Shown here piece after piece: positions 8,314 to 34,567 of a stretch of DNA of 35,970 bases (position 1 is the stretch's first letter; each line of letters starts with the position of its first letter). The DNA is taken from contig CAYLXD010000004.1 in NCBI GenBank assembly GCA_964387515.1, forward strand, positions 1 through 35,970. Direction: 5' to 3'. The translations under genes were made by a program, and so were the position numbers. This DNA comes from an uncultured Pirellulales bacterium. Its GTDB lineage: Bacteria > Planctomycetota > Phycisphaerae > Sedimentisphaerales > Anaerobacaceae. Below the pieces are notes generated by a model. It saw only the letters and a list, made by a program, of their open reading frames with translations. It was not told the DNA's origin and made no database searches.

Positions 8314-9162
8314 ATGCTCAGTAGACTATATCACTATGCGCTTTATCTCAAAGCTATGCAACGTGTCAATATGGCTTTAGGTAGGGCAGCTGCTGTGTCA
8401 CCAAAAAGAAGAATTGATCCCACTAATCCAACATCGTGGGAATTTTCAGGTTTCAGTCAAAATGGTGAGGACGGTATTATCGATTATTTGACAACTAACA
8501 TTAGAGATCCCAATCGCTATTTTATAGAAATAGGGGCTGCTGATGGAATTGAGAACAACTCTGCTTGGCTTGCCATTGCAAAAAAGTTCAGAGGATTGAT
8601 GATTGACGGAAATCCAAAGTCAGTCCAACGGTGTAATCAGTTGATGCCGAGTTTGAATTTATACGTGGAATGCCTTCATCTCTTCATCGACAAGAACAAT
8701 ATTGAGGAACTTATTAAGTTCGCTTTATGTAAAGATCCCGATCTCTTTTCTTTGGATATTGATGGTAATGATTATTATATTGCACAATCCATAATAAACG
8801 CAGGTTTCCGGCCCAAAATATGGGTAGTGGAATATAACTCTGCATTTGGGCCAGTCCAATCTCTAACTATAGCTTACCGTAAAAATTTCAATTGTCGCAA
8901 GGCTCACAAAAGCCAATTGTATTATGGTGTATCTATAGCTGGCTGGAAAACATTCTTTCTGCAGCATGGTTATCAATTCGTTACAGTAGAAAGGAATGGT
9001 GTAAACGCTTTTTTTATTAAGCCGGATCATTTTGATAATATGTTTTGCAAAAATATTAAAGGGTTAGAATTTCAGGAAAATTTCTATCAGGAAAAAATTT
9101 CCAGATTGGCGTGGGAAGGACAATTTGAAATAATTAAACATATGCCTTTTGTGAAAATTTAA
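8314..9162 (+). CDS. Putative FkbM-like methyltransferase-fold protein
   Basis: FSQNGEDGIIDYL ... YFIEIGAADGIENNSAWLA ... GLMIDGNP ... DLFSLDIDGNDYY ... VVEYN. This resembles FkbM/Methyltransf_21-type proteins of LPS clusters. The assignment is from memory of the family pattern only. Confidence 0.4.
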   Translation: MLSRLYHYALYLKAMQRVNMALGRAAAVSPKRRIDPTNPTSWEFSGFSQNGEDGIIDYLTTNIRDPNRYFIEIGAADGIENNSAWLAIAKKFRGLMIDGNPKSVQRCNQLMPSLNLYVECLHLFIDKNNIEELIKFALCKDPDLFSLDIDGNDYYIAQSIINAGFRPKIWVVEYNSAFGPVQSLTIAYRKNFNCRKAHKSQLYYGVSIAGWKTFFLQHGYQFVTVERNGVNAFFIKPDHFDNMFCKNIKGLEFQENFYQEKISRLAWEGQFEIIKHMPFVKI

Positions 9163-9184: not shown

Positions 9185-10309
9185 GTGCCTCACATAGATC
9201 AAAAAATGAAATACATTCTCTTTTATGCGGTGTCACTGACTGGATCCCATGGCGGAAAAAATCGGTCAACCCAACTGCTGGAAATTCTTTCGGAATTGGC
9301 AGAAGTGCAGCCTATTTGTCCATCAGGCGGCAGAAGAAAATTGCAGTTTGCTATTTCAGTGAATCTAATCCCGACTCTAATCAAGTGGTCATTGAATTTT
9401 TCGCGAACATACGGTTTAAGAGCAGGCATAGGTTGGGCGATAGCATATATGGCCGGCAGAATGTCTGCCAAGAAGCAAATCGCGAGAGTTGGTAAGCCAT
9501 ATTTGGCAGCAATAGAATATTTTCGATACTTCCCGGATTTAACCCTTTCCAAGAGTACAGATTGCACTGTCATTGGCTTTCCACAGAACATAGATGCTTT
9601 AGCTCATGGCAATTTTGGGAAACAAAGTACACATCTAAGACGACTCAAACATGAAATTTCGATGTATCGCCGGTGCAACGCTGTATTTACGATTTCTCAA
9701 GAAGAAGCATGGTTTTTGCGAAATGCAGGAGTGAACGCTTATTTTTTGCCGTATATACCACCGAAAGATCAAATGACAATTATTGAAAAAGTTGCTCAAC
9801 TGCGTAATAACACAGGTGTACGCCACAATTTATTGTTTGGTACCGCGCGAAATACACCAACGAAATACGGCATGACCTCTTTTCTGAACTATGTACATGA
9901 TAAGAATGTTTCATTTGATCTGCCTGTTATAGTAGCAGGAGCTGGTACGACAGAACAATATGCGTCTTTTGCCAGTGAGAACGTTAAAATTCTTGGAAAA
10001 GTTACAAATGAGACACTCATTGACTTACTTGCCCAAGCTAATACACTAATAGTACCTCAAGAATGGGGCACAGGGGCATTGACCCGTGTTATAGACTGGG
10101 CACTTGCCAGTATTAATATCGTCTGCACCCGACACGCAGCGAGAAGTGTCCCTTATTTTCCAAATATGCATATATGCGACAATATCAGGGATATGATCGA
10201 GTTAATAAACAGTCCGCTGCCCCGATATCAGGGAGTCCAGCAAGTACCTGAAGAATTTAAAGAATCAGTTGAACATGCAAAGAGTTATATCAGCTCGTTC
10301 AAAAAATAA
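9185..10309 (+). CDS. Hypothetical protein, possible GT-B fold glycosyltransferase
   Basis: GTG 9185 or ATG 9206. The C-terminal half (VIVAGAGT ... VKILGKV ... LIVPQEWGTGALTRVIDW) has a GT-B-like beta-alpha pattern. No canonical EX7E motif. Confidence 0.3.
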   Translation: MPHIDQKMKYILFYAVSLTGSHGGKNRSTQLLEILSELAEVQPICPSGGRRKLQFAISVNLIPTLIKWSLNFSRTYGLRAGIGWAIAYMAGRMSAKKQIARVGKPYLAAIEYFRYFPDLTLSKSTDCTVIGFPQNIDALAHGNFGKQSTHLRRLKHEISMYRRCNAVFTISQEEAWFLRNAGVNAYFLPYIPPKDQMTIIEKVAQLRNNTGVRHNLLFGTARNTPTKYGMTSFLNYVHDKNVSFDLPVIVAGAGTTEQYASFASENVKILGKVTNETLIDLLAQANTLIVPQEWGTGALTRVIDWALASINIVCTRHAARSVPYFPNMHICDNIRDMIELINSPLPRYQGVQQVPEEFKESVEHAKSYISSFKK

Positions 10310-14806: not shown

Positions 14807-15643
14807 ATGAAGGAGTGGCCTAAGATAAGCGTTGTAACACCATCATATAACCAAGGGGCGTTTTTGGAACAAACTATCCGTTCTGTATTGGAGCAAAATT
14901 ACCCCAATTTGGAGTATATCGTAATTGATGGAGGCAGTACGGATGGTTCGGTAGATATTATCAAAAAATACGCTGATAGACTGGCGTACTGGGTTAGTGA
15001 AAAGGACAAGGGCCAGTCGGATGCCTTGAATAAGGGTTTTAAAAGAGCAACTGGTGATATTGTAGCGTGGCTGAATAGCGATGATATGTATCTGCCTGGA
15101 GCTCTTGAAACGGTGGCAAAGACGTTTGTGGATAATCCTGATGTCGACTTCGTTTTCGGAGACAAGTTGGCTGTAGATGAAAACGGCAATATCCTGCGCT
15201 ACGAAAGACACACTCACTTTAGCTTTACAGCCTTCGTTGTTATAGGCTCTACGCTGTCGCAGTGCGCAACCTTTTGGAAACGGGCACTTTTTGAAAAGTA
15301 TGGTTATATTGATGACGGGTTGCAGTATTCGATGGATTATGAGTTTTTTTGCCGTATTGGTGCTCATATAAATGCCAAGCACATAAGAAAATACTTAGCT
15401 AAATTTCGTTGGCATACCAGCTCAAAATCCAGCACACCTTCGGAGCGGCAGCGTATGGAGCACAATACTGCTCGAGACAGATATCTGCGTTCCGTATGCA
15501 GCGGATATCCTGAAATTCTTGTAAAGGTCACTATGCATCTTTGCCGCGCGTACTGGTACACCAAACAGGGCGATGGTTTTTATGTGTTGCGAGGGATTTG
15601 CAGGAGAATGTTGCCACGGTCACTGCGGCCGCGGTCCTTGTAG
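14807..15643 (+). CDS. GT2-family glycosyltransferase
   Basis: ISVVTPSYNQGAFLEQTIRSVLEQNYPNLEYIVIDGGSTDGS ... DKGQSDALNKG ... LNSDD. Confidence 0.9.
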   Translation: MKEWPKISVVTPSYNQGAFLEQTIRSVLEQNYPNLEYIVIDGGSTDGSVDIIKKYADRLAYWVSEKDKGQSDALNKGFKRATGDIVAWLNSDDMYLPGALETVAKTFVDNPDVDFVFGDKLAVDENGNILRYERHTHFSFTAFVVIGSTLSQCATFWKRALFEKYGYIDDGLQYSMDYEFFCRIGAHINAKHIRKYLAKFRWHTSSKSSTPSERQRMEHNTARDRYLRSVCSGYPEILVKVTMHLCRAYWYTKQGDGFYVLRGICRRMLPRSLRPRSL

Positions 15644-15680
15644 AAAATTTCATCATAAATTGTTGGTTTTCAAAGGTATT

Positions 15681-16778
15681 ATGAATTATCGCTTTCTGAA
15701 AAAGCACTTCTTTTTGATATTGCTGATTCTCGGTTTTGTGACCCTATATTCTGCCTCTCGTGCTGCATCGCCCCTGAGTGACATAGATATTGTTTTAAAG
15801 TTAAGACAGCTAAAGCCATTACCTAAGGTGCATTATTCCTGGGGACTTGGAACTTTAATTAACGATCCCAACAGCAAGCTGCTTTATGAGCTTGCGAGAA
15901 TCACCCATTCAATCGGCATAACCGGGGCGTATGTAAGCGAGGAACAGATTGTTAATGCGGTTTATGTCTGTGCGAGAGTCGACAGAACAAATCCTGAAAT
16001 ACCTGCGTCGATAGCAATAAATCTAAGCCCTTTTCATTACAAATTTGAAAAAAATCTCGGGCCGGCGGACCGGGGCGCAAGTTTCCAGGAAGAATTGAAC
16101 TTTTTGGTTACTCGTCTGATGCTGATAAAAAGCTGGGTCGGCAAAGCAAACGCGAAATATTCCAGTGACGTTCGGGTTACAGCCATTCTTTTTGACAGTG
16201 AAAGATTTGTCAGAAGCAAGACGGATGAAAAGTGGAATTCAGCCATTTGTGACGCGTTTGAAACAGTTCAGCAGGCCGCAGTCCGGATTTTCCCCTCCGC
16301 GAGAATAGAATGGTTTGCGCAGGGAGTCGAAGCTGCATGGGGTAAAGACGGGTGGGGCGAGACGCCGTTTTTCGTTCACTGCAAAATGTTCAGGGCTCTG
16401 TCCTGCATTTTTTACACTCTCCCTGAGATCGAACGTATGCGTGAAACCTTTCGCAGAACATGTAAGCTCGCTGACGAATTAGGCATTGAAGAAGTTACGC
16501 CCTGGGTCGCGCTGGGCAGCGGCCTGAGGCGAAACTTCAACGGCCAGAATTGGGATTCAAACTGGGACTATGACCTGATATATTCCTGGGAGTTTGGGGC
16601 GGAGCTGAATTCTAAATGGTACTCGGAACACCCTAAAAGGTTTGCTCCGTTTGACCGAGCCAGAATAGTTGCTTTTTATCCCTGCCCGTTTGACAGCCGC
16701 AGCCCGAATTGGGGCAAACACTTCATCGCATTTGTTAGGGGCGCAAACGGCGTAAGAAAACTGGACGACCTGGAATGA
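15681..16778 (+). CDS. Secreted or exported hypothetical protein, no recognised domain
   Basis: Trimmed from ORF 15573..16778 to ATG 15681. That start gives a signal-like N-terminus, MNYRFLKKHFFLILLILGFVTLYSASRAA. The upstream 36 codons overlap the GT2 3' end. Confidence 0.5.
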   Translation: MNYRFLKKHFFLILLILGFVTLYSASRAASPLSDIDIVLKLRQLKPLPKVHYSWGLGTLINDPNSKLLYELARITHSIGITGAYVSEEQIVNAVYVCARVDRTNPEIPASIAINLSPFHYKFEKNLGPADRGASFQEELNFLVTRLMLIKSWVGKANAKYSSDVRVTAILFDSERFVRSKTDEKWNSAICDAFETVQQAAVRIFPSARIEWFAQGVEAAWGKDGWGETPFFVHCKMFRALSCIFYTLPEIERMRETFRRTCKLADELGIEEVTPWVALGSGLRRNFNGQNWDSNWDYDLIYSWEFGAELNSKWYSEHPKRFAPFDRARIVAFYPCPFDSRSPNWGKHFIAFVRGANGVRKLDDLE

Positions 16779-19091: not shown

Positions 19092-19142
19092 AGTAATCGG
19101 TAGACGATGTTTTTTTGAGTTTAATATATGCAAAGGTGTTTC

Positions 19143-21287
19143 ATGAAGCAGGTTTTGCAGAATCTAAAAACGGGTCAACTGGAGGTTGCTGAGGTGCCGG
19201 CGCCAATGGTAAAACCCGGGCACTTGCTTATACAGACCCGGTGCAGCCTCATATCGAGTGGAACTGAACGAATGCTGGTCTCGTTTGCCAGGAGCGGACT
19301 AATCGGCAAGGCTAAACAGCAGCCGGACAAAGTAAAGCAGGTTATAGATAAAATAAAAACCGATGGTTTACTGCCGACGCTTCACAGCGTTTTTGCCAGG
19401 CTTGATGAGCCGCTGCCACTTGGTTACTGCAATTGCGGTACAGTTATCGAAGTTGGTAAAGGGGTCGGAGAGTTCAAGGTCGGCGACAGGGTCGTAAGCA
19501 ACGGACCACATGCAGAGATAGTCTCTGTCCCCAAGAACCTTTGTGCTAAGGTACCCGACAACGTTACCGATGAGCAAGCGGCATTTGCAGTCTTGGCGTC
19601 GATAGGTATACAAGGCATACGTTTAATTGAGCCGACATTCGGCGAAACTATCGCTATCTTTGGCTTGGGGTTGATAGGACTGATGTCTGTGCAATTGCTG
19701 AAAGCGTGTGGTTGTAGAGTAATAGGGATTGATTTAAGCGCGGACAGGCTGGAGATGGCTCGCAAGTTTGGTGCTGAAGTCATAGATATTTCCGGCGGTT
19801 CAGACCCCGTTGGTGCAGCGATGGCCTATTCGGACAACAAAGGTGTCGATGCGGTGTTGATTACCGCCTCAGCAGAGCGGGACACAATAATTCATCAGTC
19901 GGCACAGATGTGCCGAAAGCGAGGCCGAATAGTTCTGGTTGGTGTTGTGAATTTGCATATTGACCGTGCTGATTTTTACGAGAAAGAGTTGACTTTCCAG
20001 GTTTCGTGTTCGTACGGGCCGGGCCGATATGATACCGAATATGAAGACAAGGGGCATGACTATCCATATGGTTTTGTACGCTGGACGGAGCAAAGGAATT
20101 TCGAAGCAATTCTGAGCAGTATGTCTGCTGGGACACTGTTTGTCGACGATTTGATAAGTGAGCGTATTCCGTTGTCTGAAGCTCCTGAGGCTTACAAGCT
20201 TCTGATGGACGAGCCATCGAAGATGGCCCTTATATTGACATATCCTTATGGTGCAGCTAAAGCCGCTGGGACAATCGAAACCCCCACCGAATATGTCAAG
20301 TCACCTGTTTTTCCGCAGGTTGTGGCCGGCCTGATAGGAGCCGGGAATTTCGCAAAGCTGACGTTACTGCCGGCTGTAAAACCTCTTGGTATTCGTCTTA
20401 AGATGGTTGCTGATATCAATGGTGTTTCAGGAGCGCACACAGCGCGTAAATTTGGTTTTGAAAATGCCACGAACGATTACAAGGAAATACTAATTGACCC
20501 TGAAATAAACATTGTATTTATCACAACGCGCCATGATTTGCATGCTCCTATGGTAATAGAAGCCCTCGAAGCCGGCAAAAATGTACATGTCGAAAAGCCT
20601 TTATGTTTGAATCGAGAGGAACTGGCTTGTGTAAAAGAGGCTTACGAAAAGGCTGATGGTAGACAACTGCTGGTCGGTTTCAACCGACGGTTCTCGCCGC
20701 ATGCGCAAAAGATATACGCACTGGTTGCGACGCGCAGCGCTCCAATGTGTATGAGCTGGCTAATAAACGCCGGACATATCCCGGCAGACGTTTGGGTGCA
20801 GGACAGGGCTGTTGGTGGGGGACGTATAATAGGGGAAGGCTGTCACTGGCTTGATTTTATGAGATATTTAGTGGCTGAACCAATCATCCAAGTATCGGCA
20901 ACTATGGTCGGACAGGCTCGAGGTGTAGAGATTCGCGATGACAAGATGAGCATTACGGTTGGTTTCGCAGATGGCTCAATAGGGACGGTACATTATTTCG
21001 CAAACGGCTATAAGAGTTATCCGAAAGAGACTTTTGAACTTTTCTGTGATGGAAAGATTTTACGGCTGGATAATTTCCGAAAACTCAGCGGTTTCGGCTG
21101 GAGCAATTTCAGGAACATGAACTTGTTCAGCCAGGACAAAGGTCATAAAGCTGAATTTCGTTATTTTGTAGAAAGTATAAAAAGCGGTGGTGACCCTTTG
21201 ATACCGTTTGCTGAAATTGAAAATGTAACCCTTGCGAGTTTTGCAGCCGTCAAATCGGCCGAAGGGGCGGGTCTGGTCAAAATCTAA
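19143..21287 (+). CDS. Bi-domain oxidoreductase: MDR alcohol-dehydrogenase-like N-domain fused to Gfo/Idh/MocA C-domain
   Basis: N-terminal half: MKQVLQNLKTG ... GYCNCGTVIEVGKGV ... IFGLGLIGL (GxGxxG). C-terminal half: VVAGLIGAGNFAK ... VHVEKPL, typical of Gfo/Idh/MocA. ATG 19143 is preferred over 19128. Confidence 0.85.
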   Translation: MKQVLQNLKTGQLEVAEVPAPMVKPGHLLIQTRCSLISSGTERMLVSFARSGLIGKAKQQPDKVKQVIDKIKTDGLLPTLHSVFARLDEPLPLGYCNCGTVIEVGKGVGEFKVGDRVVSNGPHAEIVSVPKNLCAKVPDNVTDEQAAFAVLASIGIQGIRLIEPTFGETIAIFGLGLIGLMSVQLLKACGCRVIGIDLSADRLEMARKFGAEVIDISGGSDPVGAAMAYSDNKGVDAVLITASAERDTIIHQSAQMCRKRGRIVLVGVVNLHIDRADFYEKELTFQVSCSYGPGRYDTEYEDKGHDYPYGFVRWTEQRNFEAILSSMSAGTLFVDDLISERIPLSEAPEAYKLLMDEPSKMALILTYPYGAAKAAGTIETPTEYVKSPVFPQVVAGLIGAGNFAKLTLLPAVKPLGIRLKMVADINGVSGAHTARKFGFENATNDYKEILIDPEINIVFITTRHDLHAPMVIEALEAGKNVHVEKPLCLNREELACVKEAYEKADGRQLLVGFNRRFSPHAQKIYALVATRSAPMCMSWLINAGHIPADVWVQDRAVGGGRIIGEGCHWLDFMRYLVAEPIIQVSATMVGQARGVEIRDDKMSITVGFADGSIGTVHYFANGYKSYPKETFELFCDGKILRLDNFRKLSGFGWSNFRNMNLFSQDKGHKAEFRYFVESIKSGGDPLIPFAEIENVTLASFAAVKSAEGAGLVKI

Positions 21288-21296
21288 AGAGCGTTC

Positions 21297-23453
21297 TTGA
21301 ATAGATTCGAAAAAGCAATTCAATTCATTCGTAACTACGGCATTGGCTTTTGTGTATTTCGCACGCACTATGCGCTCCGTCGGAAAGTCGGGTTGCTGAA
21401 ACGCAAATTTCCTGCCCAACCCTGGTCGCAGATAACACTTTCCGATTGGCTCAAAAGCAGCGCTGACCCTGAGCCGGTAAGCTTTCTTAAAGCCCACCAA
21501 GCCAATGGCGGGCATTTCTTTTTTGACAGTGGTACTATTGTAGGGTTAAACGAATGCTACAAAAAAGAAATCGTATCACAGGCTGACCAGATACTTCAGA
21601 ACCGGTTTCGCTACTTCTTTAACGATTATTACGAGCTTGGCGCCGGTCCCGACTGGTTCCTGAACCCGGTAACCGGTGCCAGAGCAAAGTCTTATCTGCA
21701 CTGGTGTGACATTGACCTTTTCGACCCCACAGTCGGTGATATAAAATTTATCTGGGAGCCATCCCGATTTGCCTGGGTGTATACCTTGGTGCGGGCGTAC
21801 GCGGCAACAGGTGACGAAAAATACGCTGAGAAGTTTTGGACACTGTTTGAGTCTTGGCTCGTTGCCAACCAGCCCAACATAGGGCCGAACTACGCCTGCG
21901 GCCAGGAATGTGCGATTCGTTTGATGGCAATGTGCTTTGCATTGTATGCTTTCTCTCAGGCCCGCCCCAGCACCGTCGAGAGGAAAATAAAACTTGTTAC
22001 CGCAATCGCGGTTCACGCAGACAGAATAGAAAAGAATATAGACTTTGCTATTTCCACCCGCACGAACCATTCTTTAACCGAAGCAGCCGGCCTTTATACT
22101 GCTGGTGTATTATTTCCTGAGTTTGAACGCTCAGAGCATTGGTTAAAACTCGGAAAAAAAGTCTTGATGAAGGAGGGTTTGAAGCAGATTTATCTTGACG
22201 GTGCTTATATCCAGCATTCGATGAATTATCATCGCCTGATGCTGCAGGATTTTCTTTGGGTGCTTCGACTGGCGCAGTTGAACGACGACTCTTTTTGTGA
22301 CGAGTTGTTCTCCCGTGTTAAAAAGGCTGCTGGTTTTCTTTGCCAGATGCAGGATGAATTTAGCGGCAGAATGCCGAACTATGGCCCAAATGATGGAGCT
22401 TTAATTATACCTTTGAATAGCTGTGACTATATGGACTATAGACCTGTTCTGCAGGCAGTGAATTATTTGTTTAATAATGCCAGGTTATATGAGTCAGGGT
22501 CTTGGGATGAAGATTTGGTTTGGCTTTTCGGCCCCCAGGCCTTGGTCGCTCCTTGCAAGCAGGTAGAGCGTAGCAGTAAGGCATATGAGGCGGGGGGGTA
22601 CTATACCCTTCGCAACAATGAAAGCTGGGCAATGATGCGATGCCACAGTTATAGAGACCGTCCCAGCCACGCTGATATGCTCCATCTGGATTTGTGGTGG
22701 AAGGGACATAACATCCTGCGGGATTCCGGCTCGTATATGTATAATTGTGAGCAACCCTGGCAGGACTACTTCGGTTCAACCTTTGCCCACAATACGGTAG
22801 TAGTAAATGGCACCAGTCAGATGCAAAGGCTCACACCCTTTATGTGGTTAGACTGGACGAAGGCAAAACTTACTATGCGCAGGAGTTTTAATGGGGGTGC
22901 CATTGAGATTATGCAGGGTGAGCATTATGGTTTCCGCAAGCCGTACAATGTTATTCATCGTCGGGCGGTTCTGTCATCACAGGATGGTTTTTGGCTGATT
23001 GTCGACGATGTATTGGGAGAGGGGGTTTATGAGGTTGGGGTTTATTGGCAGCTTTGCGACGTCGATTATCAAACCCACGGTAACACCGTGATTTTGCAAA
23101 CGGCTTCGGGACCGGTGTGCCTGGTGCTCTTGGATTCTTCCGGTAGTGGAAAATGCGAATGTTTCAAAGGCAGCGACAGGCCGGCTGGCTGGCAGTCTTT
23201 GTATTATGGGCGTCGTGAGCCTGCGCCGGTGTTCATTTGCTCGGCAAGAGCGGTGCTGCCTGCTCGTTTTATAACTCTTGTCGATCTCGGGGATACGATT
23301 AAAAATGCAGCCTTGGATGGCAGAGAAAAGTTGTCTTGGTTTTCTGAAGTGTCGGGAAAAGAGCACATCGTTGCTCTAAATCTGATTGCAAGCTCCGATA
23401 GGAATATTTTTGTGTTTACCCAGCAGGGTACAGAAAAAATATCTTTGTGTTGA
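21297..23453 (+). CDS. Heparinase II/III-like (alginate-lyase fold) protein without a signal peptide
   Basis: FIWEPSRFAWVYTLVRAYAATGDEKYAEKFWTLFESWLVANQP is the N-terminal alpha/alpha-toroid pattern. SHADMLHLDLWWKGHNILRDSGSYMY is the Hepar_II_III C-domain pattern. TTG start. The N-terminus MNRFEKAIQFIRNYG is not hydrophobic. Confidence 0.8.
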   Translation: MNRFEKAIQFIRNYGIGFCVFRTHYALRRKVGLLKRKFPAQPWSQITLSDWLKSSADPEPVSFLKAHQANGGHFFFDSGTIVGLNECYKKEIVSQADQILQNRFRYFFNDYYELGAGPDWFLNPVTGARAKSYLHWCDIDLFDPTVGDIKFIWEPSRFAWVYTLVRAYAATGDEKYAEKFWTLFESWLVANQPNIGPNYACGQECAIRLMAMCFALYAFSQARPSTVERKIKLVTAIAVHADRIEKNIDFAISTRTNHSLTEAAGLYTAGVLFPEFERSEHWLKLGKKVLMKEGLKQIYLDGAYIQHSMNYHRLMLQDFLWVLRLAQLNDDSFCDELFSRVKKAAGFLCQMQDEFSGRMPNYGPNDGALIIPLNSCDYMDYRPVLQAVNYLFNNARLYESGSWDEDLVWLFGPQALVAPCKQVERSSKAYEAGGYYTLRNNESWAMMRCHSYRDRPSHADMLHLDLWWKGHNILRDSGSYMYNCEQPWQDYFGSTFAHNTVVVNGTSQMQRLTPFMWLDWTKAKLTMRRSFNGGAIEIMQGEHYGFRKPYNVIHRRAVLSSQDGFWLIVDDVLGEGVYEVGVYWQLCDVDYQTHGNTVILQTASGPVCLVLLDSSGSGKCECFKGSDRPAGWQSLYYGRREPAPVFICSARAVLPARFITLVDLGDTIKNAALDGREKLSWFSEVSGKEHIVALNLIASSDRNIFVFTQQGTEKISLC

Positions 23454-24713: not shown

Positions 24714-24796
24714 AAAGCGACGAGTACAATAATAACCTTAGGCAATTAGCTGTGGACAAGTTTGCCGAGTTCGAAATTGTATCGAAGAGGGTTTTA

Positions 24797-25714
24797 ATGG
24801 TAAATGCCCTGACGATAGATGTTGAGGATTACTGGAGTATTTTTTCACGAGACTGGCTTGGTCTTGATCAGGAACCCAGTGACGCAGTGGTTAAAAATAC
24901 CGAGTGGTTTCTGGAAACACTCGATCTCTTCAGTGTTAAAGCTACTTTTTTCGTACTGGGTAGGGTGGCAATCAGGTTCCCTGGTTTGGTAAGAAAAATT
25001 GCCCGTGCCGGTCATGAGATTGGAAGCCATGGTATTTCTCACGAGCAGATTTTCAAATTCACCAAAGAGCAGTTTCGCAGCGAGATAACCGATTCTAAGA
25101 AGCTACTCGAAGATATTGTTTCCGGTCTGGTATTTGGATATCGGGCACCGGCCTTTTCTATAATGCCGCAGACAAAATGGGCGCTGGAAGTGTTGGCCGA
25201 AGCAGGCTTTAACTACGACTCGAGTGTTTTTCCGATTTCAGGCAGGCGCTACGGCTGGCCCGGGTTTAGCAGAGATATAGCCAGGATTGAGCTGCCGTCT
25301 GGTCGAACCATTGTTGAAGTTCCAATGTCGACAGTAAGCATTTTGGGCAAAATTCTTCCAGTTGCAGGTGGTGGTTACATAAGACATTTCCCTTACTTTA
25401 TCACAAAATGGGCAATGGAGCACATCCAAAAAAGGAACAGGCCTGTAATAGTTTATGTGCACCCATACGAGGTTGATACCGGTGTGCGAACATTTGATAC
25501 GAAACAACTTTCCTATAAGAAAAGAATCAGAGCGATGAAGTTTCACAAAATGCAGCTAAGAAACAGAAACACCGTTCGCGGAAAACTAACTAAATTGCTG
25601 TCAGAATTTGAATTTGCCACCGTAAAGCAGGTGATAGAAAAAACCGTGGTGCGTTCATATAAGGAGGCCATAAAAGATGAAGTCCGAGACCGCTGGTACA
25701 CAGAGATATTTTGA
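24797..25714 (+). CDS. Polysaccharide deacetylase family protein (DUF3473 / PEP-CTERM-locus subtype)
   Basis: ALTIDVEDYWSIFS, FFVLG, GHEIGSHGISHE, YRAPAFSI. ATG 24797 with GAAGAGG upstream is preferred over GTG 24752. Confidence 0.8.
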   Translation: MVNALTIDVEDYWSIFSRDWLGLDQEPSDAVVKNTEWFLETLDLFSVKATFFVLGRVAIRFPGLVRKIARAGHEIGSHGISHEQIFKFTKEQFRSEITDSKKLLEDIVSGLVFGYRAPAFSIMPQTKWALEVLAEAGFNYDSSVFPISGRRYGWPGFSRDIARIELPSGRTIVEVPMSTVSILGKILPVAGGGYIRHFPYFITKWAMEHIQKRNRPVIVYVHPYEVDTGVRTFDTKQLSYKKRIRAMKFHKMQLRNRNTVRGKLTKLLSEFEFATVKQVIEKTVVRSYKEAIKDEVRDRWYTEIF

Positions 25715-26330
25715 CAGTGTTCCGAAGCGATGGGATGCGCTTTATTCTCATGAGAACCAGTTCAAGTACCTTATAAATAATTGGCTGCGCAAGGGACTTT
25801 ACGAGCGGCATCGACTTACTTTTGAGCATTGTGGTGACCTCTCAGGGAAGAGAGTGTTGGATATAGGATGTGGTACCGGCCGATACAGTATCGAATGTGT
25901 GAGGAGAGGAGCTGCCCACGTCATCGGTATAGATTTCGCGCCATCAATGATTGAATTTTCACGGGAAGTAGCCCAGCAATTGAACGTTGCTGATAAATGT
26001 GAGTTTATCTGTGCTGACTTTCTGGCGTATCCATTTGAAGAGTCTTTCGATATTGTTTTGGCACTTGGTGTTTTTGATTATATAAAAGAACCGGAGCCAA
26101 TGTTCAAAAAGATTGCCACACTGTCACCCCGCAAATTCGTGGCATCATTTCCGAAGTATACTCCTTTTTGGAATATTCAACGCAAAATTCGTTACTACTG
26201 GATCAGAAAATGCCCTATTTATGACTACACCACAGAGCAGTTAGAACGGCTGGCTCGCCAGGCGCCGTTTCCCCACTACCAGATCATTCCATGCAAACGA
26301 GGTTACTTTCTGGCAGGGGGCACTGAGTAA
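25677..26330 (+). CDS. Class I SAM-dependent methyltransferase
   Basis: Motif I is VLDIGCGTGRYS, followed by IGIDFAPSMI and DIVLALGVFDY. The gene overlaps the deacetylase gene by 38 nt. Confidence 0.8.
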   Translation: MKSETAGTQRYFDSVPKRWDALYSHENQFKYLINNWLRKGLYERHRLTFEHCGDLSGKRVLDIGCGTGRYSIECVRRGAAHVIGIDFAPSMIEFSREVAQQLNVADKCEFICADFLAYPFEESFDIVLALGVFDYIKEPEPMFKKIATLSPRKFVASFPKYTPFWNIQRKIRYYWIRKCPIYDYTTEQLERLARQAPFPHYQIIPCKRGYFLAGGTE

Positions 26331-26390: not shown

Positions 26391-27008
26391 ATGGTAATAA
26401 CTGACATTAACCATGACCACGCTGCACAGATTGCCAAACTGCACATCCAAGGCATAAGTACTGGATTTATCAGCTCGCTCGGCATCGACTTTGTTACCGC
26501 CTTGTATGAGGCAATTGCACAGAGCGAATCCAGCTTTGGTTTTGTGGCGCAGGAAGCCGATAAAATTGTCGGGTTCGTGGCGTTTACTGCAGATATCAAC
26601 GTGCTTTACAGATCAGTTATTTTGAGGAAAGGTTTGCGTTTTGTACTTCTTTTGGCTGGGAAGATGTTGTCTTTACAAAGACTGGGAAGAACTTTTGAGA
26701 CTTTGTTCTATCCCAGCAGAATAAAGAAAATGGATTTACCCAAGGCTGAGCTTCTTTCGATAGTGGTTGCCGAAGAGCATCAGAGCAAAGGGGTAGGGTT
26801 GGCTTTGGTGGAAAGAGGTTTTGAGGAGTGTGTACACAGGAAGATAGAGAAAGTAAAGGTTCTTGTCGGTGCGCGAAAGGAACCGGCAAATAAGTTCTAC
26901 CTGAAGTGTGGCTTTGAGCTTGTTGGGCAGATAGAAAATCACGGTGTGCTCAGCAACATCTACGTAGCAGAGACAAGTAAGAGATGGACCGATGAGAAGT
27001 TTATTTAA
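26391..27008 (+). CDS. GNAT-family N-acetyltransferase
   Basis: VVAEEHQSKGVGLALVERG is the acetyl-CoA-binding Q/RxxGxG motif. Followed by NKFYLKCGFE. The start is ATG 26391 or TTG 26337. Confidence 0.75.
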   Translation: MVITDINHDHAAQIAKLHIQGISTGFISSLGIDFVTALYEAIAQSESSFGFVAQEADKIVGFVAFTADINVLYRSVILRKGLRFVLLLAGKMLSLQRLGRTFETLFYPSRIKKMDLPKAELLSIVVAEEHQSKGVGLALVERGFEECVHRKIEKVKVLVGARKEPANKFYLKCGFELVGQIENHGVLSNIYVAETSKRWTDEKFI

Positions 27009-27609
27009 AAGATTTTTCGATTTGTTAGTTTCGTTGTCTGCGATAGTGGTTTTGCTGCCGGTTTTTGCTGTTATTGTCATTGCGATAAAAATTAGCGGCA
27101 GGGGGCCGGCGATTTTCAGACAAGAGCGGGCAGGCAAAAACGGCAAGCCGTTTGTCTTTTATAAGTTCCGTACAATGAAAGCTGATGTCAATCCGTTCGG
27201 GCCGAGCCCAAAAACCGGCGATGACCCACGCCTGACAAGAGTAGGAAAGTTCCTTCGCGAATATTCGCTTGATGAGTTGCCGCAGTTGTTTAACGTGTTG
27301 AAGGGGGATATGAGTATTATCGGACCTCGGCCGTTGTATATCTCACAGATGGCTGAATGGGATGAAAGGCAAAAAAAGAGGCTGCTCGTTAAGCCGGGCC
27401 TTACGGGTTTGGCTCAGATTTCCGGCAGAGGCGAGCTTACACGTGAAGAAAAACTTGAACTTGATGTAAAATATGTTGAAGCTGCTGGTTTCTGGCCTGA
27501 CTTAAAGATAATTTTCACAACCATTGCCCATGTTTTTGGACGAAAGAATATATACGAGAAGAGATATTCTAAAACCGAACATACGAGAGGGCAGATGAGT
27601 AAAAAGTAA
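26992..27609 (+). CDS. Small monotopic phosphoglycosyl transferase (bacterial sugar transferase, PglC/WbaP-C type)
   Basis: One N-terminal re-entrant helix, then FYKFRTMK and DELPQLFNVLKGDMSIIGPRP. The gene overlaps the GNAT gene by 17 nt. Confidence 0.9.
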   Translation: MRSLFKRFFDLLVSLSAIVVLLPVFAVIVIAIKISGRGPAIFRQERAGKNGKPFVFYKFRTMKADVNPFGPSPKTGDDPRLTRVGKFLREYSLDELPQLFNVLKGDMSIIGPRPLYISQMAEWDERQKKRLLVKPGLTGLAQISGRGELTREEKLELDVKYVEAAGFWPDLKIIFTTIAHVFGRKNIYEKRYSKTEHTRGQMSKK

Positions 27610-27686
27610 TTGGTTGAACGTAATAGTAACTCATAAAGGGTAGGTGGTTTGTCATTAAAGTCAAATACAAAACAAAAATAGAGCGG

Positions 27687-28781
27687 TTGGAACAACTGAG
27701 CGAGGAAGAAAAAGCCCAGCTAAAGAAGGTTACCGAGAAGTTTGCTTTCCGCGCCAATGACTATTATCTGTCGCTTATCAACTGGAGCGACCCAGACGAC
27801 CCGATACGTGCAATTATAATCCCGCACACACAGGAGCCTGACGAGTGGGGTCGGCTGGACCCGTCGGATGAAAAAAGCTATACGGTTCTGCCCGGCCTTG
27901 AGCACAAATATAATTCCACCGCTTTGCTTTTGGTAAGCAACGTCTGTGATGGTATATGCCGCTATTGTTTCCGCAAGCGTGTTTTCATAGAACCGCGGCG
28001 TGAGTATCTGCGGGACCTGTCTGTAGCGGTGCGATACATACGGCAGCATCGTGAGATAACCAATGTACTTTTGACCGGTGGCGACCCCTTGGTACTTGCG
28101 ACGCCGAAACTTGAGACTATTATCCGGCAGCTAAGGGAAATCGAACATGTTCAGATAATTCGTATTGGCACAAAAATCCCGGCGTTTAATCCATATCGGA
28201 TTGTTGACGACCCTTCTTTGCTGGAGATGCTCAGTAGGTACAGCACCGAAAGAAAGAGAATATATTTTATGACTCATTTTGTTCATCCGCGGGAGTTAAC
28301 GGATGTAGCGGTCGAATCTGTTAATTTGCTTTATCATGCCGGTGCAGTTGTAGCCAATCAGATGCCCCTTATAAAGGGTTTGAATGATAATCCTGAAGTT
28401 CTGGCGGAGTTACTTGCGGAGCTATCCTTTATTGGTGCGGTTCCCTATTATATTTTCCAGTGTCGGCCAGCTTTGGGAAACAGGATTTATACACTGCCGA
28501 TTGAACAAGGGTATGAAATTATAGAGCAGGCCAAATCGCTGGTTTCAGGGCTGGCAAAGCGAGCTCGGTTTGTAATGTCGCATTCAAATGGAAAAATAGA
28601 AATCGCAGGTAAAACAGAAAAACGCGTCTATTTTAAGTATCACCGTGCCGCCTCTGATGAGGACAGCGGCAGATTCATGGTCTTCAAGAGTAATCCGAAT
28701 GCCTACTGGCTTGATGATTACGATGAGATAATTCACGATTATCCTGTTAATTTGCCTTATAGGTTGTATGGGCCGGAGTGA
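27687..28781 (+). CDS. KamA-family radical SAM / PLP aminomutase
   Basis: CDGICRYC (Cys87, Cys91, Cys94; codons 27945-27968), LLTGGDPL, YYIFQC, SNGK (putative PLP lysine, codon 28593-28595). The first canonical start is TTG 27687, but the frame is open from 27630. Confidence 0.85.
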   Translation: MEQLSEEEKAQLKKVTEKFAFRANDYYLSLINWSDPDDPIRAIIIPHTQEPDEWGRLDPSDEKSYTVLPGLEHKYNSTALLLVSNVCDGICRYCFRKRVFIEPRREYLRDLSVAVRYIRQHREITNVLLTGGDPLVLATPKLETIIRQLREIEHVQIIRIGTKIPAFNPYRIVDDPSLLEMLSRYSTERKRIYFMTHFVHPRELTDVAVESVNLLYHAGAVVANQMPLIKGLNDNPEVLAELLAELSFIGAVPYYIFQCRPALGNRIYTLPIEQGYEIIEQAKSLVSGLAKRARFVMSHSNGKIEIAGKTEKRVYFKYHRAASDEDSGRFMVFKSNPNAYWLDDYDEIIHDYPVNLPYRLYGPE

Positions 28782-28822
28782 AATCAAGGTTTTTTGATTT
28801 TAAGTTTTGGGTCGATTGAGTG

Positions 28823-28849
28823 CCCCCGTACAATCGGGGGTTAATTTTT
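28823..28849 (+). terminator. Rho-independent terminator-like hairpin after the KamA-like gene
   Basis: Stem CCCCCG (28823-28828) pairs with CGGGGG (28835-28840). The loop is TACAAT and TTAATTTTT follows. Confidence 0.5.
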
Positions 28850-28874: not shown

Positions 28875-30104
28875 ATGGTGGTCAGAGTTGGGACAGTTGC
28901 TTTACTGCTTTTAGTGTGTTGTTGTGTAGGGTTTGCGTTGGAACCCAATGAGATTCTCGTAATAGCGAATAGTGACGTTGAGGTGTCGGTCCGGCTCGCC
29001 CAGTATTATTGCGAAAAGCGGGCTGTGCCCGCCGGTAATATTCTTACGCTGACTTTAGGGGCGAACCTTAGGGATATGATCACCAGAGACGATTATGAAA
29101 AACATCTTGCTAAACCCGTTCGCGCGAAATTATCCGCTCGTGAATTCGCCGGCAAAATAAAGTGTCTGCTGACGACTTACGGCGTGCCGGTCAAGGTGGG
29201 AAAAAGAGGCCCCTTAAAGGCTGAGCAAGTCGAGCTGAACCGATTGAAAAAACAAAGACAGCAGGCGAAGGAAATCCTTGAGCGCCTGCAGCAGAGCGGC
29301 ACGACTGAAACATCCAGAGCTAAAGAATATATCAAGCGCCAGCTCGCAGGTTTGCAGTTGGAAATTGACCGCATCGTCGGAAATCAAACAGATGCCTCTG
29401 TCGACAGCGAGCTGTCAATGGTGCTATTTGATAACTACGAGCTTTATCTCTGGCAGCCGAATAAACTGAAAAAAGGCGGACTGCTTTTTAGTTTCGCAAC
29501 GCTTATGGTTTCTCGTCTTGATGGTCCACGCGAGGACATCGCATTTGGTCTTATCGATAAAGCGATGGCGGCCGAGCGAAAGGGGCTGAACGGCGTTGCT
29601 TATATAGACTCAGGCTATTCCGAAGCTAAGGGCGAAAAATCGCTGTACGCCGAATATGATAAGTCGCTGCGCGAAACCGCACGGATGATACGCCGGCGGA
29701 CAAAGATGAAGGTCGTTGCCGAATCCACGAAGGAGCTTTTTGCGCCCGGTGCTTGTCCGCAAACGGCTGTTTACTGTGGTTGGTACAGCCTGAAAAAATA
29801 TGTCGATGCATTTGATTTTGTTGACGGCGCGATAGGCTATCACATCTCAAGTCTCGAAGCGGTCGACCTTCGCGACCCAAACAGTACTCAATGGTGTCCC
29901 GCTATGCTCGTCGACGGAGTAACCGCAACTTTAGGTGCTGTGGCTGAGCCTTATCTTCACTCATTTCCGAAGCCTGACGAATTTTTCTCTGAGTTACTGG
30001 ACGGCCGGTGTCTTGTCGAGGCGTACTATCATACAAAGCCGTTTAATTCCTGGCGGTTGCTTCTGATTGGCGACCCCCTCTACACCCCATTCAAAAAGCA
30101 TTAG
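28875..30104 (+). CDS. Secreted hypothetical protein (resembles the TIGR03790 family)
   Basis: Signal-like N-terminus MVVRVGTVALLLLVCCCVGFA, then EILVIANSDVEVSVRLAQYYCEKRAVPAGNILTL, and a C-terminal LLLIGDPLYTPF. The family assignment is from memory and was not searched. Confidence 0.45.
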   Translation: MVVRVGTVALLLLVCCCVGFALEPNEILVIANSDVEVSVRLAQYYCEKRAVPAGNILTLTLGANLRDMITRDDYEKHLAKPVRAKLSAREFAGKIKCLLTTYGVPVKVGKRGPLKAEQVELNRLKKQRQQAKEILERLQQSGTTETSRAKEYIKRQLAGLQLEIDRIVGNQTDASVDSELSMVLFDNYELYLWQPNKLKKGGLLFSFATLMVSRLDGPREDIAFGLIDKAMAAERKGLNGVAYIDSGYSEAKGEKSLYAEYDKSLRETARMIRRRTKMKVVAESTKELFAPGACPQTAVYCGWYSLKKYVDAFDFVDGAIGYHISSLEAVDLRDPNSTQWCPAMLVDGVTATLGAVAEPYLHSFPKPDEFFSELLDGRCLVEAYYHTKPFNSWRLLLIGDPLYTPFKKH

Positions 30105-32112: not shown

Positions 32113-32859
32113 TTAATGTATCCGACGCGAGCATTTTGAGCAAATAAAAACATAGCCGACAGCAGCGACTGCAATCCCTGTGCCGGAGATGATTACATCA
32201 AATACTGTGAAGTACCTGCCGGAAATTACAGAAAACAATTTTACAACCAATAGCAAACCTGTCGGCACCGCTAAAGCAGTTATCAACCATTTCGCCCTGG
32301 ATGTTTTTGACGGAAGCGGATGTATCTGTCGAATCCACCTGTGGTGAGCTTGTCGAATCCATAGCATAGTGAAAATTGCATAGCCGAACAGATGAAACAT
32401 TGTGTTTGTTACCGGCACCAACTCCGCTAAATTCGCCCGGGCCAGATTCGTCAGAAGAAAGATGGTAATCCCCGTTACCGCAAGCAGGGCCGGCCAAAAT
32501 GTCAGAAACGAAAACAAAATTAAGCCTCCGCTCACACCTGACATATTTGCGAGAAAATCCTTAATATCACAGTTGCGCCCAACGTAGCCTTGAAGCAGTT
32601 CGTCGAGGCCTCCGTATCCGGCTGTTATCAGTAGTACCCACCATACCGCAGCCTTGCGCCAGTTTACTTTTCTGTCGGGACTGACCGCAAACCACAGCAG
32701 GAAAACCAAAATCAGGTACACGACCAGATGGAGTGTCTTGTCCGACACCTCGGCCTTGTAGACCAATTGGGGAATCGGTATGTGGGCAAGGACAAAAATT
32801 GTTGGCCAATAGAGCAATAGCGAGATTATAATCAGCTTTTGTCGCAGTGATAAAGCCAT
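32113..32859 (-). CDS. VanZ-like membrane protein with extra C-terminal TM helices
   Basis: DKTLHLVVYLILVF ... GGLDELLQGYVGRNCDIKDFLANMSGVSGG is the VanZ pattern (DK..H ... E..Q ... R..d..D...N..G). Confidence 0.65.
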   Translation of the reverse strand: MALSLRQKLIIISLLLYWPTIFVLAHIPIPQLVYKAEVSDKTLHLVVYLILVFLLWFAVSPDRKVNWRKAAVWWVLLITAGYGGLDELLQGYVGRNCDIKDFLANMSGVSGGLILFSFLTFWPALLAVTGITIFLLTNLARANLAELVPVTNTMFHLFGYAIFTMLWIRQAHHRWIRQIHPLPSKTSRAKWLITALAVPTGLLLVVKLFSVISGRYFTVFDVIISGTGIAVAAVGYVFICSKCSRRIH

Positions 32860-32983: not shown

Positions 32984-33331
32984 ATGTTCGATTCAATGTT
33001 TGAATTTATAAAAAGTGCGATAACTGAGCAGATAGTAGGCGACCCCGTCTGGGCGACCGTAGCCTTGGTCGGACAGGCGGTATTCGGCGGACGATTTGTA
33101 CTCCAGTGGATAGTCAGCGAATACAAAAAAAGGTCTCACGTGCCGACCTCTTTCTGGTTCATATCGCTCATCGGCAGCCTTATCCTCCTTTTTTACTCCG
33201 TTCACATAAAAAATCCTGTCTTTATGTTGGGTTTTTCGCTGAATACCCTTATATACATCCGCAACATTCATTTGATTTATAAACACGCCAGGAAGGGCGT
33301 GGTAACGGTAATTGAAAAAGTCGAGGACTAA
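32984..33331 (+). CDS. Lipid-A-disaccharide synthase N-terminal (LAB_N) domain small membrane protein
   Basis: VGQAVFGGRFVLQWIVSEYKKRSHVPTSFWFISLIGSLILLFYSVHIKNPVFMLG ... IYIRNI matches the PF07578 pattern. Confidence 0.8.
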   Translation: MFDSMFEFIKSAITEQIVGDPVWATVALVGQAVFGGRFVLQWIVSEYKKRSHVPTSFWFISLIGSLILLFYSVHIKNPVFMLGFSLNTLIYIRNIHLIYKHARKGVVTVIEKVED

Positions 33332-33346
33332 TTGGAGGGTTCAAAA

Positions 33347-34567
33347 ATGAAACGCTTGATAACTCCGGCAATAGTTGTGGCAATTTTGGCCTGTACCGTA
33401 GTTTTTTGCCTGGCCCAGCATAAACCACCCCTTGAAACGGTTCAGCTTTCCGAGCCGAAGTTGACCGGCCCGATGAGCCTGGAGCAGACGCTCGCTAAAC
33501 GCAGAAGTGTCCGAAGTTACAGCAGCAGGCCCCTTGACCTTACGCAAATCAGCCAGTTAGCTTGGGCCGCGCAGGGTATAACCGAAAAGACGAAAGGTTT
33601 TCGAACGGCACCCTCGGCAGGGGCGGTTTACCCGATAAAGTTGTACTTCGCCACACCCGATGGACTTTTTATTTATCAGCCGCTCGGCCACAGCCTTGAA
33701 AAAGTATCTGCACAGGATTTGCGCAGCAGCTTATCATCCGCTTCGATGGGACAACCCTGGGTGGCCCAGGCCGCCTGTGATATCATTATTGCAGGCTCAG
33801 TGGAAAAGCTCGCTGCCAGATATGCTGCCAAAGCCGAAAAGTTTATGTTGTTGGAAGCCGGCCACATCGCCCAGAATATCCATCTTCAGGCCGTTAGTCT
33901 CGGCTTGGCTTCTGTGCCCATCGGTGCCTTTGATGTTTCTCAGGTGCACGTTATCTGCAATCTGCCGATGGCACTTGAGCCCCTTTATATTATTTGTGTC
34001 GGTTACCCCACGACTTACACAGCGCCGGAGAAACCCCCGATAACAGAGCAAAAAGTAAAAAAGGCTGTGTTTATTGTAGCCAGTGAGAATTTCCGCGATG
34101 AGGAGCTTTTCGAAACCAAAAGTGCTCTTGAAAATGCACAGGTGCAAACCGTTATAGCGAGCACAAAAACCGGACGCTTAGCCGGCGTATTGGGTGGCCG
34201 GGCACAGGCGGAAATTCTCCTCGATGGTGTCGTTGTTGATGATTATGATGTGATAATATTTATAGGCGGCCCGGGGGCAACACAGTATTTTGACGACGCT
34301 GCCGCACAGGATATCGCCCGAAAAGCTGTTTCAAAGTCGAAGCTCCTTGCCGCGATTTGCATCGCACCCACCACCCTTGCCAATGCGGGTGTGCTCGACG
34401 GCGTTAAGGCCACAAGTTTTTCTTCTGAACGGCGCAAACTCGAAAGGGCCGGTGCCATATATACCGGCGCACCGGTCGAAAGGGATGGCCTCATAATAAC
34501 TGCCGACGGCCCCCGCTCAGCAGCTCGATTCGGCAAAACTATCGCTGACGCACTTGCAGACAAATAG
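33347..34567 (+). CDS. SagB-type nitroreductase-fold dehydrogenase fused to a DJ-1/PfpI domain, with N-terminal hydrophobic anchor or signal
   Basis: ATG 33347 with GGAGGG at 33334-33339. The N-terminus is MKRLITPAIVVAILACTVVFCLAQ. SagB block: LAKRRSVRSY ... RTAPSAGAVYPI ... LLEAGHIAQNIHLQAVSLGL. DJ-1 block: VIIFIGGPG ... LLAAICIAPTTLANAGVL ... LIITADGP. Confidence 0.75.
   Translation: MKRLITPAIVVAILACTVVFCLAQHKPPLETVQLSEPKLTGPMSLEQTLAKRRSVRSYSSRPLDLTQISQLAWAAQGITEKTKGFRTAPSAGAVYPIKLYFATPDGLFIYQPLGHSLEKVSAQDLRSSLSSASMGQPWVAQAACDIIIAGSVEKLAARYAAKAEKFMLLEAGHIAQNIHLQAVSLGLASVPIGAFDVSQVHVICNLPMALEPLYIICVGYPTTYTAPEKPPITEQKVKKAVFIVASENFRDEELFETKSALENAQVQTVIASTKTGRLAGVLGGRAQAEILLDGVVVDDYDVIIFIGGPGATQYFDDAAAQDIARKAVSKSKLLAAICIAPTTLANAGVLDGVKATSFSSERRKLERAGAIYTGAPVERDGLIITADGPRSAARFGKTIADALADK

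Follow-up and report, generated by a model that had tools for sequence, protein, structure and literature searches.

The window analysed here, a 35,970-nucleotide stretch of the planctomycete contig CAYLXD010000004.1, carries on its plus strand a gene for a KamA-family aminomutase-like protein of the kind that pairs radical S-adenosylmethionine (SAM) chemistry with pyridoxal 5'-phosphate (PLP) (27654..28781; 375 residues from a probable ATT start, 364 from the TTG at 27687). As judged by alignment, the catalytic machinery of the family is retained in this protein, including the cysteine triad for the [4Fe-4S] cluster, the GGD motif, the PLP lysine and the equivalent of Arg134 of lysine 2,3-aminomutase (LAM). 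Because both aspartates that hold the ε-ammonium group of lysine in LAM are replaced, a substrate other than lysine appears well supported, and the enzyme probably makes a β-amino acid. What is new is a natural aminomutase variant from a large clade in which we found no characterised member; the kind of enzyme is already known. We read it, with a probability of roughly 45%, as a deep-clade PLP/radical-SAM amino-acid 2,3-aminomutase whose β-amino acid is plausibly made for an envelope glycoconjugate.

Family membership and fold

The open reading frame (ORF) was confirmed as a real KamA-family radical-SAM/PLP protein. The only NCBIfam aminomutase model that it passes is the generic KamA model TIGR00238 (213.7 bits, cutoff 199.2); it stays below the cutoffs of the models for glutamate 2,3-aminomutase (Eam; TIGR04368, 222.7 bits, cutoff 650), the arginine 2,3-aminomutase BlsG (TIGR04468, 217.5 bits, cutoff 600), AblA/lysine 2,3-aminomutase (TIGR03820, 216.7 bits, cutoff 525.4) and EpmB (TIGR03821, 173 bits, cutoff 369.3). 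The Eam score is nominally the best among these equivalog models, yet no better than those of the arginine and lysine models. In Pfam, the 364-residue product matches Radical_SAM.

The only solved relative found by sequence is the LAM KamA of Clostridium subterminale (2A5H; phmmer E 5e-53), with about 34% identity over about 290 residues. The same structure came top in a Foldseek search with an AlphaFold2 (AF2) model of moderate confidence (pLDDT 68.8, pTM 0.70), at E 2e-21 and TMq 0.57, with the next radical-SAM protein at E 5e-7, pointing to the same core fold. The TIGR00238 score and the LAM alignments bear out the KamA hallmarks that a preliminary description of this DNA had picked out by eye, namely CDGICRYC, GGDPL and a Gly-Lys. 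Close homologues are labelled 'lysine 2,3-aminomutase' in some source databases and, more generically, 'KamA family protein' in others.

Active-site residues and comparison with known aminomutases

Residues were mapped onto the C. subterminale LAM, whose reference sequence is identical to 2a5h_A across all 416 residues. For this mapping, we aligned the window protein with LAM, a Fusobacterium LAM, AblA (encoded beside ablB), EpmB (encoded beside efp), BlsG and a TIGR03822 protein using MAFFT L-INS-i, and then repeated the mapping independently with hmmalign; the annotated reference aminomutases were collected from plasmid records. All features that follow lie on the plus strand. The CxxxCxxC motif (CDGICRYC, 27945..27968), with the predicted [4Fe-4S] ligands, corresponds to LAM Cys125, Cys129 and Cys132 and is invariant in the diverse-clade and Sedimentisphaerales-type alignments described below. 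The alignments also place an Arg (27972..27974) at LAM Arg134, which we take to be the ligand of the substrate α-carboxylate in the 2A5H structure, a GGDPL block (28077..28091) at GGDAL, and the putative PLP Schiff-base lysine (NGK, 28593..28595) at Lys337. The equivalents of LAM His230, Gln258 and Tyr290, which presumably contact SAM or PLP, are kept as well.

The two ligands of the lysine ε-ammonium group are different. At the first, YYIYQCD293L of LAM aligns with YYIFQCRP of the window protein, placing Arg-Pro (28464..28469), invariant in both clade alignments, at Asp293-Leu294; at the second, FVVD330APGGGGK aligns with FVMSHS--NGK, placing Ser-His (28578..28583) at Asp330-Ala331. L-INS-i and hmmalign returned the same codons for the Arg (28464-28466) and the Ser (28578-28580) as had been proposed by eye. 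Ahead of the PLP lysine, both the window protein and BlsG have a loop that lacks two residues relative to LAM, and because of this shortening either the Ser or the next His of the window protein could fill the Asp330 position in space. Other differences from LAM are the loss of the zinc site (Asn replaces Cys268, and there is no CxCxxC at the C-terminus), a different, β-rich C-terminal domain, and a missing stretch that corresponds to the first ~50 residues of the LAM N-terminal region. The earlier suggestion of a non-lysine, possibly acidic, substrate is upheld in its first half by the replaced ligands and the failed equivalog models; its second half would draw on an analogy with Eam and on one overlap with a GltP-like gene, both taken up below.

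Each characterised type has its own pair of residues at these positions, Asp and Asp for lysine, Asp and Thr for arginine, and Lys and Asn in glutamate-like sequences. Ruzicka and Frey (2007) are said to have described Lys and Asn in Eam at the positions of LAM Asp293 and Asp330. Eam thus resembles the window protein in that both acidic lysine ligands have given way to one basic and one neutral residue, and it differs in that Eam-like sequences carry Lys/Asn instead of Arg-Pro/Ser-His and group with the characterised aminomutases in a rough neighbour-joining (NJ) tree. In addition to its shorter PLP loop, BlsG resembles the window protein in having a neutral residue with a hydroxyl group, Thr, where LAM has Asp330, but it keeps Asp at 293 and lies in the opposite half of the tree. 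EpmB (YjeK) is likewise a short KamA-family protein without the zinc-binding C-terminus, but has the acidic pair Asp and Glu at these sites and adjoins efp. Residues and profile scores together led us to reject identity as a plain LAM, EpmB, BlsG or Eam.

An engineered parallel is also available. The alanine 2,3-aminomutases derived from LAM in a Cargill patent arise chiefly through mutation of one active-site Asp (D331G, D339H; PMC9850924), which, judged by its distance from the PLP lysine, we equated with Asp330 of LAM. Loss of that Asp alone can redirect specificity, and the His variant resembles the Ser-His of the window protein. Unlike these laboratory mutants of true LAMs, which keep Asp293, the window protein carries natural, ancient changes together with an invariant Arg at 293.

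A large clade with Arg-Pro and Ser-His

A search of 1.84 billion cluster representatives (50% identity) returned 693 clusters at E < 1e-30, and the diagnostic columns were covered by 124 of the best 150. Arg-Pro at 293-294 was found in 58 of these 124 clusters, of which 44 have Ser-His at 330-331 and 57 the PLP lysine; the others comprise 37 clusters with the lysine-type Asp..Asp/Glu, 3 with Lys..Asn and 26 with the remaining combinations. The three Lys..Asn proteins (P0231, P0239 and P0259) match the glutamate 2,3-aminomutase model of NCBIfam far better than any other (488–556 bits), in agreement with the earlier remark that Eam shows analogous replacements by basic and neutral residues. Because of this match, Eam appears to be a lineage separate from the clade of the window protein.

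The NJ tree, a rough, midpoint-rooted tree of full-length representatives and references, divides the family into two halves. One holds LAM/AblA, EpmB, TIGR03822, BlsG and the Eam-like sequences, and the other is the Arg-Pro/Ser-His superclade that includes the window protein, which would make the clade sister to all characterised aminomutases as far as this rough tree can tell. Rather than marking a local variant of LAM or Eam, the Arg/Ser pair is the signature of a large clade, placed by the same tree as sister to both. In 23 diverse members (32–45% identity to the first sequence), the three Cys, the Arg134 equivalent, the Asp of GGD, Arg-Pro and the PLP lysine are invariant, and Arg-Pro, Ser-His and the Lys occur in 34/34 aligned Sedimentisphaerales-type sequences. 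The window protein has the whole clade signature, consisting of Arg-Pro, Ser-His, the PLP loop shortened by two residues and a C-terminal KIEI...KYH...W(L/F)DD domain. In the literature on the KamA family, aminomutases and TIGR03790, we found no paper characterising the clade or the gene module described below. To our knowledge, all characterised KamA-family members are 2,3-aminomutases, and the only substrates established for radical-SAM 2,3-aminomutases are lysine, glutamate and arginine.

A conserved module bordering variable glycan loci

Close homologues of the window protein (62–91% identity) come nearly all from metagenome-assembled genomes (MAGs) of Phycisphaerae or Sedimentisphaerales. 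Gene neighbours were counted, as homologues of window genes, in 80 species-level loci from GTDB genomes. The immediate same-strand upstream neighbour is a Bac_transf transferase in 54/68 loci that left room to judge, represented in the window by a small phosphoglycosyl transferase of 205 residues (26992..27609, plus strand; PF02397, 222 bits). Immediately downstream lies TIGR03790 in 49/71 loci, and in 8 more VanZ follows the aminomutase directly, without TIGR03790; the TIGR03790 protein of the window (28875..30104, plus strand; 250 bits against a cutoff of 67) starts with a signal-peptide-like hydrophobic stretch. Further 3' in the window there are two minus-strand glycosyltransferases, a VanZ-like membrane protein (32113..32859, minus strand), a fusion of a SagB-type nitroreductase with a DJ-1/PfpI domain (33332..34567, plus strand) and NadE, the last three being conserved flanks found in 39/51, 37/51 and 33/51 loci, respectively.

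The region upstream in the window is a Wzx/Wzy-type surface-glycan locus. It contains sugar genes (dehydratases, epimerases and an aminotransferase), a flippase, a Wzy-like polymerase and GT2 and GT4 glycosyltransferases, along with a heparinase II/III-like protein, a deacetylase resembling the XrtA-system type, a methyltransferase and a GNAT protein. Among the 80 loci the upstream glycosyltransferases vary, and on one 2.27-Mb contig (L178) the transferase, the radical-SAM gene, TIGR03790 and VanZ occur without any glycosyltransferase cluster. The conserved unit is therefore a short module, transferase-aminomutase-TIGR03790-VanZ, which sits at the edge of variable glycan loci. Of the glycan operon that had been postulated for the window gene, the linkage to the transferase is retained; the long operon gives way to a short module that also exists without glycosyltransferases, and the deacetylase and GNAT, once proposed as partners, have homologues in just 3/80 and 12/80 loci.

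Clade members in other bacteria

Several other clade members are fused to, or lie beside, enzymes that form amides. In P0183, an ATP-grasp domain of the Ddl (D-Ala-D-Ala-ligase) type is fused N-terminally to the aminomutase; P0189 is a single fusion protein in which a condensation domain of a non-ribosomal peptide synthetase (NRPS) precedes the aminomutase; and in P0123 the aminomutase is followed, in the same chain, by a DdaG-like amide ligase and a RidA/FkbO-like domain. On the Sinorhizobium meliloti M270 accessory plasmid A (L175 1649-11214), a clade member is flanked by two ATP-grasp genes, with ectB, an aspartate-semialdehyde dehydrogenase and a gene annotated as uridylate kinase as neighbours; this locus looks like a small-peptide pathway from diaminobutyrate and a β-amino acid. 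A clade member of Rhizobium sp. NXC14 overlaps a gene with a weak condensation-domain match. These fusions and adjacencies fit the release of a free β-amino acid for later amide formation, and suggest that such a free β-amino acid is the product. Also, in a Calditrichia MAG a 62%-identical homologue overlaps by 20 nt a symporter gene whose product matches Pfam SDF (sodium:dicarboxylate; 414 bits) and, as its best NCBIfam match, the glutamate/aspartate transporter GltP, the sole independent pointer to an acidic substrate.

Additionally, we scanned metagenomes for clade loci with an 8-sequence alignment. Clustering the neighbours of 78 diverse loci gave no universal partner gene. Links to glycan enzymes recur in part of the clade: a WecA-type PF00953 gene lies beside the clade member in L084, L086, L046 and L001, and in seven metagenome loci of a second lineage the clade member adjoins a PMT_2-type GT-C membrane protein followed by DJ-1. 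In the rough tree, members beside such polyprenyl-phosphate-dependent enzymes group near the subclade of the window protein. Glycan co-location takes the form of Bac_transf adjacency within one order and of WecA-type or PMT_2 adjacency in sister lineages, with the glycosyltransferase-free module occurring as well. In other genomes, the subclade is linked to the Bac_transf neighbour, and most wider-clade members have no glycan context.

A stand-alone DJ-1 gene was seen directly 3' of the aminomutase in L127, L132, L138, L152, L158, L164 and L170, often after a PMT_2 membrane glycosyltransferase, and in L096 (6448-7860) a SagB-family gene lies directly 5' of it. The association of SagB-type and DJ-1 proteins with the aminomutase may be a functional link or a coincidence. 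In a Thermodesulfobacteriota MAG (L076 5942-7075), a 70%-identical homologue is interrupted by an in-frame stop some 14 codons short of the conserved C-terminus, which may reflect truncation, sequencing error or recoding. Other contexts show no apparent shared theme: by eye, the gene following the clade member (+1) in L097 and L099 is a methylglyoxal synthase and the clade member of L105 lies between purD and purN, and in L109 (4497-5741) an AdoMet-decarboxylase/spermidine-synthase fusion, confirmed with Pfam, adjoins the clade member.

Proposed function and alternatives

In the mechanism that we propose, PLP would form an external aldimine with a free α-amino acid held by the conserved Arg. 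SAM would be reductively cleaved at the [4Fe-4S] cluster to a 5'-deoxyadenosyl radical that abstracts a hydrogen from C3, and the amino group would then move from C2 to C3 via an azacyclopropylcarbinyl radical, so that a free β-amino acid could be released as a building block. Less firmly, and by analogy with the Lys/Asn pair of Eam, the invariant Arg and the flanking Ser-His may bind an anionic or strongly polar side chain of the substrate. The weakest step is the last, in which the product would, in Sedimentisphaerales, enter the envelope glycoconjugate begun by the adjacent transferase. We propose this destination, plausible but unproven, because the gene sits in a module with the transferase and the probably secreted TIGR03790 protein at the border of surface-glycan loci.

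Several observations weigh against this reading. Homologues of the GNAT and the deacetylase are as scarce among the 80 loci as noted above, and the mean identity of 74% across the 80 species is typical for a core metabolic enzyme and not for a decoration enzyme. VanZ, nitroreductase-DJ-1 and NadE, which form the right-hand flank, are just as conserved and look like housekeeping genes, and glycan genes were not seen at most of the 78 diverse metagenome clade loci. No amide ligase or aminoacyl transferase was recognisable in the window; the preliminary description had likewise seen no amide ligase. Since all loci with the transferase and TIGR03790 fall in one order-level lineage, their adjacency to the aminomutase could be inherited synteny. 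Lastly, the identity of the substrate is argued by analogy, and the Arg might just as well take up space in a pocket meant for a small neutral substrate.

The very high conservation, and the position of the gene at a junction with housekeeping-like genes, would suit an enzyme of the same chemistry whose product is a soluble metabolite, either a compatible solute such as β-glutamate or a fermentation intermediate, with the gene neighbourhood reflecting inherited order. The same can be said of the 65–74%-identical homologues in L053, L055, L063 and L076, which have neither Bac_transf nor TIGR03790, and of those in L084 and L086, which have a WecA-type gene instead; of the Calditrichia homologue, which overlaps just the GltP-like transporter gene; of a metagenome locus (L148) in which the gene lies, as read by eye, between the genes for enoyl-CoA hydratase and 3-hydroxyacyl-CoA dehydrogenase; and of the lack of a recognisable ligase in the window. 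We nevertheless regard a soluble product, the strongest alternative, as somewhat less likely than the proposed reading, given that transferase, aminomutase and TIGR03790 keep short same-strand gaps and survive changed surroundings (L178), that related members independently adjoin WecA-type and GT-C enzymes, and that a dedicated Lys..Asn glutamate 2,3-aminomutase lineage exists, distinct from the clade of the window protein. A small neutral substrate, for example L-alanine converted to β-alanine for pantothenate/CoA or for a dipeptide, with the Arg closing the pocket, would be in keeping with the core-gene-level conservation, with the engineered alanine aminomutases that lose the Asp equated with Asp330, with the His beside position 330 that is nearly universal in the clade, and with the D-Ala-D-Ala-ligase-type ATP-grasp fused to P0183. 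This seems improbable, however, as an invariant Arg with Ser-His is a typical anion-binding set that a methyl side chain would make superfluous, and pantothenate genes were not recognised in about 160 neighbourhoods, in which no search aimed at them was made.

About equally improbable is the use of the KamA scaffold for another radical/PLP reaction, or its action on an amino acid that is attached to a carrier, nucleotide sugar or lipid-linked glycan. The position of the clade outside all characterised aminomutases in the rough tree, its own C-terminal domain, the missing N-terminal ~50 residues and the nearness of membrane glycan enzymes speak for such a departure; set against them are the invariance of all residue classes needed for the amino shift, including the Arg for a free α-carboxylate, the fusions with adenylating, ATP-grasp and condensation enzymes, which fit a free amino-acid product, and the fact that every characterised family member we know of is a 2,3-aminomutase. 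An ordinary lysine 2,3-aminomutase, whether of the KamA/AblA type or of the EpmB type acting on elongation factor P, is hardly credible. The database label on some close homologues and a GNAT gene two genes upstream, superficially like ablA-ablB, would favour it, but both Asp ligands are replaced, the AblA and EpmB scores lie below half their cutoffs, the zinc-site Cys268 and the C-terminal CxCxxC are absent, efp and epmA were not recognised in the window or in the annotated neighbourhoods, and the GNAT is missing from most of the 80 loci.

Returning to the 2,3-aminomutase that serves an envelope glycoconjugate, one may imagine a bolder version, which we consider a long shot, in which the whole module builds a novel envelope structure. 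The transferase would start a lipid-linked sugar to which the β-amino acid, made from glutamate or a different anionic amino acid, would be joined; beyond the cytoplasm, the secreted TIGR03790 protein would use this handle, perhaps acting as a gingipain/PorU-like transpeptidase by which proteins or polymers become anchored to the glycan. A parallel is found in type IX secretion, in which cargo is attached through a seryl-amino-sugar linker. If true, this would be the first natural β-aminoacyl glycan, and two orphan families would gain functions at once.

The window gene cleanly exemplifies a very large clade, to which 58 of the 124 representative 50%-identity clusters near the query belong. 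The specificity residues of this clade are unlike those of all three known types, and in other bacteria its members supply NRPS, ATP-grasp and adenylating ligases. Identification of the substrate would add an enzymatic route to a β-amino acid, with uses in natural-product mining and biocatalysis, and would also mend the 'lysine 2,3-aminomutase' annotation of close homologues. The module, with its priming transferase and orphan secreted protein, is the more intriguing lead and the less secure one; Sedimentisphaerales are abundant anaerobic planctomycetes of sediments, and the module offers a testable entry to their envelope biochemistry.

Gene start and downstream hairpin

The aminomutase frame is open from 27630 and ends with its stop codon at 28781. 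Position 27630, given as the gene start in the preliminary description, is merely the first codon past the stop at 27627-27629; between that stop and the TTG at 27687, the first canonical start, there are no ATG, GTG or TTG codons. In all homologues, the N-terminus retains the segment KY(L/I)T(K/R)IEQLEQL, and an ATG lies 1–12 codons 5' of it; the window encodes KYKTKIERLEQL in frame, 5' of TTG 27687. A Shine-Dalgarno-like AGGTGG (27642..27647, plus strand) stands six bases 5' of an ATT at 27654, and the arrangement of AGGTGG, six bases and ATT is common to the window and its closest relative (L143 1-190; TIGR03790 82% identical). Because this arrangement is shared, and because L143 has a TGA at the position of the window's ATA 27633, the ATT at 27654 is the probable, non-canonical (AUU) start of the gene as far as sequence comparison can indicate. 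The resulting length of 375 residues falls within the range of 364–404 residues among aligned homologues. As an alternative start we considered ATA 27633, which aligns with the ATG of P0002, yet L143 has its TGA stop there. The gap to the transferase gene is 44 nt from ATT 27654; the 77 bp quoted earlier hold if translation starts at TTG 27687.

Downstream of the gene lies a terminator-like hairpin of 7 pairs, 6 of them G-C (28822-28841), followed by TAATTTTT (together 28822..28849, plus strand), the best such site in the region. The hairpin that had been called a terminator is thus present, but such sites are not above chance in the region (6 observed against 4.0 ± 2.1 expected). In relatives, TIGR03790 lies about 39 nt downstream of the aminomutase, with no space for a hairpin. 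Since TIGR03790 is a conserved downstream partner, at this short distance in relatives, the aminomutase gene does not close the unit, contrary to what had been supposed. Rfam and transfer-RNA scans of the window gave zero matches, with no riboswitch or other RNA near the aminomutase gene.

TIGR03790 and other ORFs of the window

Six Cys residues of the TIGR03790 protein are invariant, as are His323 and Cys341, and a helical hairpin is inserted at roughly residues 107–170. With a poor AF2 model (pLDDT 60.5), the best Foldseek matches were the gingipains RgpB and Kgp (E 8e-3, TM 0.30), and a profile search of PDB sequences gave coiled-coil noise only, with no sequence-level support for a gingipain. 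We therefore treat a gingipain-like TIGR03790 as a faint, model-derived lead and not as a finding.

Three plus-strand ORFs within the glycan locus of the window, 8314-9162, 9185-10309 and 15573-16778 (282, 374 and 401 residues), had no match in Pfam, NCBIfam or PDB sequences, which makes each a candidate for the missing modifying enzyme. At 19128-23453, a 719-residue fusion of a zinc alcohol dehydrogenase with a GFO/IDH/MocA oxidoreductase is followed by the heparinase II/III-like protein of 718 residues, an unusual pair in the middle of a biosynthetic glycan locus. The ORFs of the XrtA-type-like polysaccharide deacetylase (260 bits, just below the cutoff of 276) and the methyltransferase, at 24752-26330, overlap by 38 nt, so at least one of their starts is probably miscalled. 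Between VanZ and the SagB-type/DJ-1 fusion, a 115-residue ORF (32984-33331) resembles only an internal segment (positions 139–221) of a long lipid-A-disaccharide synthase model, and is kept at the same position in several relatives, for example L007–L009, L027, L046 and L070.

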